Assembly: GCF_036507355.1 (NCBI RefSeq)
Contig: NZ_AP027877.1
Length of the DNA: 64,000 bases
DNA from: Escherichia coli
GTDB lineage: Bacteria; Pseudomonadota; Gammaproteobacteria; Enterobacterales; Enterobacteriaceae
Reading direction: 5' to 3' (one strand)
Shown: piece by piece, positions 1,250 through 24,527 of the stretch
How the letters are laid out: each line of letters begins with the position of its first letter
Numbering within the stretch: position 1 is the stretch's first letter
Translations under genes and position numbers: made by a program
Notes under the pieces: model-generated
Seen by the model: the letters and a program-made list of their open reading frames with translations, nothing else
Told to the model about the DNA's origin: nothing
Database searches by the model: none

Positions 1250-1333
1250 TCCTTTGTCCTCTTTGGGGGAAATGTCCCTTTCAACATCATTGACTTTCGA
1301 ATGCGAGTCAAATGCATTTTTTTGCAAAAAGTG

Positions 1334-1370
1334 TTGGACAAGTGCGAATGAGAATGATTATTATTGTCTC
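1334..1370 (+). promoter_or_regulatory. ryhB promoter with overlapping Fur box (gaatgagaatgattattattgtc)
   Basis: Fur-box-like AT-rich 19-mer immediately upstream of the RyhB 5' end; -10-like tattat at 1359-1364. Confidence 0.65.
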
Positions 1371-1460
1371 GCGATCAGGAAGACCCTCGCGGAGAACCTG
1401 AAAGCACGACATTGCTCACATTGCTTCCAGTATTACTTAGCCAGCCGGGTGCTGGCTTTT
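1371..1460 (+). ncRNA. ryhB: RyhB small RNA (Fur-repressed iron-sparing sRNA) with intrinsic terminator at its 3' end
   Basis: Sequence gcgatcaggaagaccctcgcggagaacctgaaagcacgacattgctcacattgcttccagtattacttagccagccgggtgctggcttttttttt matches the remembered RyhB sequence; lies between yhhY and yhhX as in K-12. Confidence 0.9.
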
Positions 1461-1582
1461 TTTTTTGATCTTTCGTTCTCAATTTATCCACGGGAGTGCT
1501 TGTGTTCGTTATGCGCACTCCAGTAGGAACCACGCCCGCTTTGCGCTAAGGTGTAAATAACCACCTTAAAAAGGACGAAATT

Positions 1583-22599: not shown

Positions 22600-22825
22600 A
22601 AAAAGAACAAATGGTAGTGTCCGCTATTGCCAGTACACCTCACAGCTTGGTTTTGCGTTGGGATATTATTGCCAGTGGCGCAGCAAAAATAGATGCCAGA
22701 TACGGAAGTGGAGTGAGTGGGGAACGTGCTTAAGTTTTGTTACGTTGGGTATGATGGCGTGGGCTTTGCGGTAATTCCCTGAATCAAAAAGTAGGTCAGA
22801 TTGTTGACAACGTGGCACTTTGTTC

Positions 22826-22862
22826 ATGCCTGATGCGGCGTGAATGCCTTCTCAGGCCTACA
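22826..22862. repeat. REP element (gcctgatgcggcgtgaatgccttctcaggcctac)
   Basis: Matches the REP consensus pattern GCCTGATGCGRCG...GGCCTAC; downstream of glpD. Confidence 0.7.
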
Positions 22863-22895
22863 AAATCATGCAAATTCAATATATTGCATAAACCA

Positions 22896-22928
22896 CGTAG
22901 GCCTGATAAGCGTAGCGCATCAGGCAAT
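22896..22928. repeat. REP element, inverted relative to the preceding copy (BIME-like pair)
   Basis: gtaggcctgataagcgtagcgcatcaggc. Confidence 0.7.
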
Positions 22929-22988: not shown

Positions 22989-24494
22989 TTACGACGCCAG
23001 CGACAACTTCTGCTGCGTATACTCCACCAGCCACTGACTCACACGAGATTGTTGATCCGCATTCAGCCACATGCCTTGTTTTGTGCGACGCCACAGGGCA
23101 TCGTCGGCGCGGCGGACCCATTCGTGATCCACCAGGTATTTCAGCTCCGCTTCGTAGAACTCATGACCGAAATCTTCCCCGAGATCGCTTACCGTCCCCG
23201 CATTGCCGAGCAGCAACTCGCTGTTGCTGCCGTAAGTGCGCGCGTAGTGACGTGCCAGCGATTCGGTCAGGAACGGGTAGCGGCGGCGCAGGCGGGCGGC
23301 ATAATCGTCGCGGTCGCCTTCAATGGCACCACCCGGCAGCACGCTCTCTTTCGTCCATGCCGGGCCAATGCCCTGATAATACGGCGTTAGTTTTTCCAGC
23401 GCGTGCTCCGCCAGTTTGCGGTAGGTGGTCAGCTTACCGCCGAATACCGACAGCAGCGGTGCTTTGCCGTTTTCATCATGGATATCAAGGGTGTAATCAC
23501 GGGTAATGGCCTGCGGCGAGTCGGACTCATCATCACACAGCGGACGCACACCGGAGTAAGTCCAGACGATATCGTCACGGCTTAACTGCTTTTTAAAGTG
23601 CGCGTTATACACTTTCAGCAGGTAATTGATTTCACTCTCTTCAATCTTCACCGCTTTCGGATCGCCTTTGTATTCCACATCGGTGGTGCCGATGATGGAA
23701 AACTCATCCATCCACGGGATCACGAACACAATGCGTTTATCTTCGTTTTGCAGAATGTAGGCTTGCTTCTGGGTATGCACACGCGGCACCACAATATGGC
23801 TGCCTTTGATCAGGCGAATGCCATAAGGCGAAGGCAGATGCATGCCGTCGTCGAAGAACTGTTTCACCCACGGGCCGGTAGCATTCACCAGGCCGCGCGC
23901 CTGCCAGCGGTATTTTTTGCCGGTGTCGATATCTTCCGCTTCCACAATCCACAAGCCGTTTTCGCGGCGAGCAGAGGTGGCGCGAGTGCGGGTAAGCACT
24001 TCGCCGCCTTTACGCACCACCATCTGAGCGTTGGCGAGTACCAGACGGGCGTCGTCTACCCAACAGTCGGAATATTCGAATCCGCGCTTGATTTCCGGTT
24101 TTAACACTGAGTTTGCGCCAAAACGCAAGCCGGTTGATCCCGGCAGGCTGGTGCGTTTACCCAGATGATCGTACATAAACAGACCAATCCGAATCATCCA
24201 CGCCGGGCGCAGATGCGGACGATGTGGCAGGCGAAAACGCATCGGGAAGGCGATATGCGGGGCCATTTTCAGCAGCACTTCACGTTCAGCCAGCGCCTCG
24301 CTGACCAGGCGGAATTCATAGTGCTCAAGGTAGCGCAGGCCACCGTGAATGAGTTTTGAACTAGCGGAAGAGGTCGCGCAAGCGAGATCCTGCGCCTCCA
24401 GCATCAGCACGGATAAACCGCGTCCAGCGGCGTCTGCCGCGATACCAGCACCATTGATGCCGCCCCCTATCACAATCAGATCTTTGGTTTCCAT
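22989..24494 (-). CDS. glpD: Aerobic glycerol-3-phosphate dehydrogenase
   Basis: Matches GlpD METKDLIVIGGGINGAG...; FAD-binding motif; 501 aa from the internal Met. Confidence 0.95.
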   Translation of the reverse strand: METKDLIVIGGGINGAGIAADAAGRGLSVLMLEAQDLACATSSASSKLIHGGLRYLEHYEFRLVSEALAEREVLLKMAPHIAFPMRFRLPHRPHLRPAWMIRIGLFMYDHLGKRTSLPGSTGLRFGANSVLKPEIKRGFEYSDCWVDDARLVLANAQMVVRKGGEVLTRTRATSARRENGLWIVEAEDIDTGKKYRWQARGLVNATGPWVKQFFDDGMHLPSPYGIRLIKGSHIVVPRVHTQKQAYILQNEDKRIVFVIPWMDEFSIIGTTDVEYKGDPKAVKIEESEINYLLKVYNAHFKKQLSRDDIVWTYSGVRPLCDDESDSPQAITRDYTLDIHDENGKAPLLSVFGGKLTTYRKLAEHALEKLTPYYQGIGPAWTKESVLPGGAIEGDRDDYAARLRRRYPFLTESLARHYARTYGSNSELLLGNAGTVSDLGEDFGHEFYEAELKYLVDHEWVRRADDALWRRTKQGMWLNADQQSRVSQWLVEYTQQKLSLAS

Positions 24495-24527
24495 GCTGCC
24501 CTCATTCACTTTCGTTAAAGCTCATAA

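Follow-up and report, generated by a model that had tools for sequence, protein, structure and literature searches.

The ryhB locus

The window, which is the whole 64-kb stretch of E. coli DNA that was analysed, contains an intergenic interval at 1250-1582, between the genes yhhY and yhhX. The upstream neighbor is yhhY (761-1249, − strand), which is oriented divergently and encodes a GNAT N-acetyltransferase (Pfam Acetyltransf_1, E 1.4e-18) identical to K-12 YhhY at 162/162 residues. The downstream neighbor is yhhX (1583-2620, + strand), which is co-oriented with ryhB and encodes a Gfo/Idh/MocA oxidoreductase with a Pfam match, identical to K-12 YhhX at 345/345 residues. A sequence-only reading of this DNA had placed a complete RyhB sRNA gene with a Fur box between these two genes, and both neighbors are confirmed, with proteins 100% identical to those of K-12.

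The window was scanned against Rfam 15 at gathering thresholds, which gave two matches. RyhB (RF00057) gave the stronger one, at 1400-1464 (+ strand), with 83.1 bits against a gathering score of 55 and an E value of 3.6e-14 in the 64-kb scan (3.1e-16 when only 551 nt were scanned). The match spans positions 1-67 of the 67-position model, so it is not truncated, and it is the only RyhB match in the window. A permissive scan of 1150-1700 yielded, beyond RyhB, sub-threshold noise (PrrF, 21.2 bits vs gathering 90; Esr41, 19 bits vs 102).

The whole yhhY-yhhX intergenic region was then aligned with that of K-12 MG1655 over 332 columns. The RefSeq record of MG1655 annotates ryhB (b4451) at 3580922-3581016 (− strand), between yhhX and yhhY. 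Its 5' end at 3581016 aligns to G1371 of the window and its annotated 3' end to T1466. From the -35 hexamer through the terminator stem all bases are the same as in K-12. The sole difference within ryhB, from G1371 onward, is in the terminator T-run, which has 10 T (1457-1466) vs 9 T in K-12. Three single-base changes lie in the intergenic flanks, and a fourth affects the base immediately preceding the yhhX start codon. The transcribed region is accordingly placed at 1371-1466 (+ strand), the equivalent of the 95-nt RefSeq K-12 feature with the full T-run included. The classical 90-nt RyhB RNA corresponds to 1371-1460 (+ strand), with nucleotide 90 at 1460, and the length of E. coli ryhB has been given as "90 bp" (PMC3423075). 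The first 29 nt of the RNA lie outside the Rfam model, and the whole of their support is the identity to K-12. The range 1334-1460 first proposed for the locus runs from one base before the -35 hexamer to RNA nucleotide 90. Both the Rfam scan and the K-12 alignment decisively uphold the proposal of a complete gene, which matches K-12 ryhB apart from one T.

The minimum free energy fold of the 90-nt RNA is not more stable than that of shuffled sequence (z -0.67). This value is uninformative and is no argument against function, as it is common for short sRNAs with a single-stranded, accessible seed.

Promoter, Fur operator, core and terminator

A sigma-70-type promoter is located at 1335-1364 (+ strand), with a -35 hexamer TGGACA (1335-1340), an 18-nt spacer and a -10 hexamer TATTAT (1359-1364). 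It agrees with the consensus at 10/12 positions and is the only promoter-like site in 1200-1650 by consensus scan, a simple method that may miss weak or non-sigma-70 promoters. Transcription probably starts at G1371, a position placed by homology to the K-12 annotation, and the promoter spacing fits a start at this base.

The putative Fur operator (1344-1368, no strand assigned) overlaps the -10 hexamer and consists of a main box at 1350-1368 and a weaker site at 1344-1362. The main box (GAGAATGATTATTATTGTC) matches the 19-bp consensus GATAATGATAATCATTATC at 16/19 positions. It has 3 mismatches; no other site in the 64 kb matches as well, and 100 shuffles produced none, so the Fur box of the earlier reading is indeed present. 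The second site has 5 mismatches and lies 6 bp upstream, overlapping the main box. In K-12 the ryhB Fur site is bound by Fur in gel-shift assays, and it has been described as a 25.2-bit site with two weaker overlapping sites (PMC2189734). The two-site layout in the window fits this published description as well as the overlapping hexamer arrays typical of Fur operators. Fur is expected to bind 1344-1368, given the identity to the characterised K-12 sequence. Because the operator covers the -10 hexamer, repression would occur by promoter occlusion.

Within the RNA, the conserved core GAAAGCACGACAUUGCUCACAUUGCUUCCAG (1400-1430, + strand) is the same as the Rfam consensus and, according to the literature on RyhB, would be the target-pairing segment. 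The single-stranded part of the core, GCACGACAUUGCUCACAUUGCUUCCAG at 1404-1430, likewise equals the Rfam consensus. The core is followed by a Rho-independent terminator (1439-1466, + strand) with a 7-bp G+C-rich stem (AGCCAGC/GCUGGCU), a 5-nt loop and 10 T. A terminator hairpin with poly-U has been described as the Hfq-binding module of RyhB and SgrS (PMC4509938). The terminator and the AU-rich segment at 1431-1438 probably form the same module here.

Two short palindromes were spotted by eye between yhhY and the ryhB -35 hexamer, TTGACT...AGTCAA at 1291-1312 and TTTTTGCAAAAA at 1318-1329. They might be an UP element or part of the yhhY promoter.

Conservation within and beyond E. coli

The 96-nt ryhB sequence is present in 5424/5426 complete E. 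coli genomes, always on the chromosome. The median copy number is one, and identity reaches at least 99% in 5358 of the 5424 genomes with a match. A search with the 332-nt intergenic region also gave matches in 5424 complete E. coli genomes. Among the matches listed, RefSeq has no feature under the ryhB match in any of 31 E. coli genomes. Standard RefSeq annotation thus leaves ryhB unlabelled in the listed genomes other than K-12, whose curated record has the gene, and it is fair to call the locus invisible to ORF-based annotation, as the sequence-only reading did. One genome, 23AR0151, stands apart in that a 95-nt ryhB query spans 104 nt at 91.3% identity, implying inserted bases within the match.

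Species-representative genomes were scanned for exact occurrences of the 23-nt core GACATTGCTCACATTGCTTCCAG. At least 120 loci were found, in Enterobacterales, Vibrionales and Aeromonadales, often two per genome. Those with enough flanking sequence amounted to 114. Among the matches listed, 107/114 loci from other species have a Fur-consensus site with at most 5 mismatches between -130 and -20 of the core, while a Fur-like site occurs in 0/110 control stretches of equal length. The Fur site lies at a median offset of -67 from the core in these listed loci from other species and at -58 in the window. At least 6 consecutive T follow the core in 93/114 of the listed loci, with a median position of +50, compared with +49 in the window. 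The Fur box-core-terminator architecture is therefore conserved in sequence far beyond E. coli, and this is independent comparative support for the functional reading.

Among the matches listed, yhhY lies upstream of the core, in divergent orientation, in 25 loci from other species, including Yersinia, Serratia and Pantoea; yhhX lies downstream in 15, and both neighbors are found in 13. Many non-Escherichia species among these matches, such as Yersinia, Photorhabdus, Pantoea, Enterobacter and Serratia, have two separate exact-core loci, and typically one locus only adjoins yhhY.

Alternative readings of the locus

Could the region encode a protein instead? The six-frame listing does contain a 90-aa ORF at 1254-1526 (+ strand), together with smaller overlapping ORFs. 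The 90-aa ORF begins with TTG inside the yhhY upstream region and then crosses the entire sRNA gene, from the Fur box and promoter to the terminator. No Pfam family matches it. Its reading frame is not kept in close relatives, as there is a stop at codon 6 both in K-12 and in the closest genome, SCU-316, and the T-run length difference from K-12 shifts the frame of the C-terminal third. Because the ORF has no Pfam match, a codon-6 stop in these relatives and a frame shift at the T-run, it is spurious, as the sequence-only reading had called it, and it should be discarded from the six-frame list. A coding function for the region is extremely improbable. We give as little credence to the idea that the locus is a decayed or paralogous copy, comparable to Salmonella RyhB-2/IsrE, and not the functional orthologue. 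Two RyhB-core loci do occur in many of the scanned species among the matches listed. In the window, however, a single Rfam RyhB match was found, the median is one copy per E. coli genome, and the locus occupies the orthologous yhhY-yhhX position with the same sequence as K-12 ryhB.

We therefore identify 1334-1466 as the E. coli ryhB locus, comprising a Fur-repressed promoter and a 90-95-nt Hfq-dependent sRNA, with a probability of roughly 98%. Judged by its sequence, the gene is an ordinary copy of one already known and matches the reference K-12 gene. It places the window on the E. coli chromosome, in synteny with K-12 at ~3.52-3.58 Mb.

Proposed mechanism and targets

Since 2001-2002 RyhB has served as a paradigm for regulation by bacterial sRNAs. 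The window itself provides the sequence, the family membership and the promoter, operator and terminator motifs, and the genome comparison provides the conservation across species; these are direct observations. From identity to the characterised K-12 gene, Fur is expected to bind the operator, and the RNA to depend on Hfq, pair with its targets and recruit RNase E. When iron is sufficient, Fe2+-Fur would bind the operator at 1344-1368 and block transcription. When iron is low, Fur would leave, and RNA polymerase would start at G1371 and terminate at the hairpin and U-run at 1439-1466. Hfq would then bind the terminator/poly-U module. The core (~1400-1430) would pair close to the ribosome-binding site in the messages of iron proteins that are not essential, namely sodB, sdhCDAB, acnA/B, bfr, erpA, iscSUA and others. 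Such pairing would block translation and recruit RNase E, and iron would be spared. In agreement with this scheme, RyhB is reported to be Fur-repressed and to lower Bfr, SodB, AcnA and SdhCDAB (PMC7315122), and to pair with erpA and recruit RNase E (PMC5040110).

A crude, restricted duplex scan was carried out with the core (nt 31-62) against the -35 to +20 region around each of 76 ORF starts from the window. Of the known targets, K-12 erpA came out at rank 0, ahead of all 76, and sodB at rank 11 of 76, which we regard as weak evidence. In the same scan of 76 ORF starts no signal was obtained for feoA, nfuA or yhhX. A scan with full-length RyhB against -80 to +40 around starts was discarded for lack of discrimination, as the known target sodB ranked 55 of 61.

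Relation to feoABC and nfuA

The sequence-only reading also saw an iron-regulation link between ryhB and the feoABC and nfuA genes. Both are in the window, feoABC at 46276-43475 (− strand) and nfuA at 40817-40242 (− strand), and feo is also under Fur. To this extent the claim stands. As a link to ryhB it was overstated, since these genes lie 39-45 kb away and nfuA is not a RyhB target. Fur-Fe2+ lowers the expression of feo, whereas Fnr and OmpR activate it (PMC7315122). Upstream of feoA, at 46384-46414, there is a weak array of overlapping Fur-like sites, but with 6 mismatches per site a similar array occurs in ~10% of random stretches of 456 nt. Holo-IscR represses nfuA, which one paper explicitly describes as not RyhB-regulated (PMC10117729; PMC5040110). 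The region upstream of nfuA contains no Fur-like site, the best match having 9 mismatches. The starts of feoA and nfuA show no above-average pairing with the RyhB core, at ranks 55 and 74 of 76. The link is thus one of theme only, through shared Fur control for feo and an indirect Isc/IscR route for nfuA, and the presence of these genes in the same 64 kb has no regulatory significance.

The second-best Fur-consensus match in the window (GACAATGATAATCACTTTA, 44467-44485, 4 mismatches) is inside the feoB coding sequence and not in the feoA promoter.

The ryhB-yhhX spacer

Because yhhX is co-oriented with ryhB and begins 116 nt downstream, ryhB may be the first part of a Fur-controlled ryhB-yhhX unit, with some polymerases reading through the terminator. 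This possibility would add to the identification of the locus as ryhB. The consensus scan of 1200-1650 found no sigma-70-like promoter match in the spacer, though such a simple scan can miss weak or non-sigma-70 promoters. On plasmids the ryhB terminator is often read through, and ryhB "seems to be co-transcribed" with yhhX, which the authors themselves call unproven (PMC4509938). By RNA-seq, iron depletion raises yhhX mRNA in the wild type, and no such rise is seen in a ryhB deletion from which the promoter is missing as well (PMC8896160). The 15 loci from other species with yhhX after the core, among the matches listed, point the same way. Against this, ryhB termination is enhanced under iron depletion, just when the promoter is active (PMC4509938). 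In addition, the spacer varies from ~39 nt to >1400 nt across species and has acquired REP-like inserts in E. albertii and in some Citrobacter and Pseudescherichia. Because of this variable length and these inserts, tight coupling of ryhB and yhhX is not conserved. We rate a shared transcription unit at slightly less than an even chance.

The spacer RNA (1467-1582, 116 nt) is strongly structured. Its predicted fold has -38.6 kcal/mol (z -2.99), and 0/200 shuffles were as stable. Two inner hairpins, at 1487-1528 (GGAGUGC/GCACUCC) and 1547-1568 (UAAGGUG/CACCUUA), lie just upstream of the yhhX Shine-Dalgarno sequence. In a fold of 1467-1600, UUUCGUUCU (1471-1479) pairs with AGGACGAAA (1572-1580, the yhhX Shine-Dalgarno) in a 9-bp outer helix with one G.U pair. 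This anti-Shine-Dalgarno helix was rejected as a candidate element. A helix of at least 9 pairs forms in 14% of shuffles, and the duplex energy of -11.0 kcal/mol is close to that of shuffles (-10.4 +/- 2.0, P 0.35). Furthermore, E. albertii and Citrobacter have a different sequence just after the terminator, although their Shine-Dalgarno region is the same or similar.

We tentatively propose, with rather less conviction than for a shared unit, that the ryhB promoter is also the main promoter of yhhX through read-through, making yhhX an iron-starvation oxidoreductase whose expression is perhaps modulated by the structured spacer. The co-transcription half of this proposal has already been suggested in the literature. 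The spacer-structure half is our own idea; the structure might have such a role, although the anti-Shine-Dalgarno form of the idea is the one rejected above. If the proposal is true, the uncharacterised Gfo/Idh/MocA oxidoreductase yhhX is an iron-starvation gene that belongs to the Fur regulon through ryhB read-through.

Other features of the window

At the start of the window, 1-524 (− strand) encodes the N-terminal part of a YhhZ-like protein with a T6SS Hcp domain (Pfam T6SS_HCP, E 1.3e-12), which runs off the start of the stretch. It occupies the same position as K-12 yhhZ and has several substitutions in the first 60 residues. The interval between this gene and yhhY (530-760) is very AT-rich. 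Further downstream, between glgP and glpD, ~4.1 kb (18600-22715) are absent from K-12. In K-12 the junction is inside yzgL, which therefore resembles a scar left by a deletion. Two PBP_like_2 (phosphate-binding-protein-like) proteins, 505 and 351 aa long, are encoded in the segment, along with a 158-aa hydrophobic protein with no Pfam match, and the segment carries an IS3-family element with HTH_Tnp_1 and rve ORFs at 21443-22599. The second Rfam match at gathering threshold, the ES036 (CssrF) sRNA (RF02751; 43.6 bits vs 37.6), lies at 22862-22904 (+ strand), adjoining the insertion boundary. It is just downstream of the glpD stop and on the opposite strand (glpD 22989-24509, − strand).

Comparison with known systems

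The closest known system is K-12 ryhB itself (b4451; RF00057; also called SraI), with which the window shares the promoter, the Fur box, the 90 RNA nucleotides, the terminator stem and the yhhY/yhhX flanks. It differs from the K-12 gene by the one extra T in the terminator run. Other E. coli share the 10-T form, among them O157:H7 PV15-279, identical at 96/96 bases, and the length of the T-run at 1457-1466 is thus polymorphic in the species.

In the RyhB homologues of Vibrio, Aeromonas and other Enterobacterales, second copies like Salmonella RyhB-2/IsrE among them, the common core GACAUUGCUCACAUUGCUUCCAG is likewise preceded by a Fur box and followed by a U-run. These homologues differ from the window in the 5' stem-loop, the promoter and the genomic neighbors. 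Many other species have two RyhB copies, whereas the window has one, and Klebsiella ryhB does not have yhhX downstream (PMC3423075). Pseudomonas PrrF1 and PrrF2 (RF00444) resemble RyhB in being Fur-repressed, Hfq-dependent, iron-sparing sRNAs. They are functional analogues and not homologues, as reflected in the PrrF score of the window, which is far below gathering. A possible analogy to ryhB-yhhX is offered by sgrS-setA, in which an sRNA terminator leaks into a co-oriented downstream gene. Co-transcription has been demonstrated for sgrS-setA, whereas for ryhB-yhhX it has been suggested.
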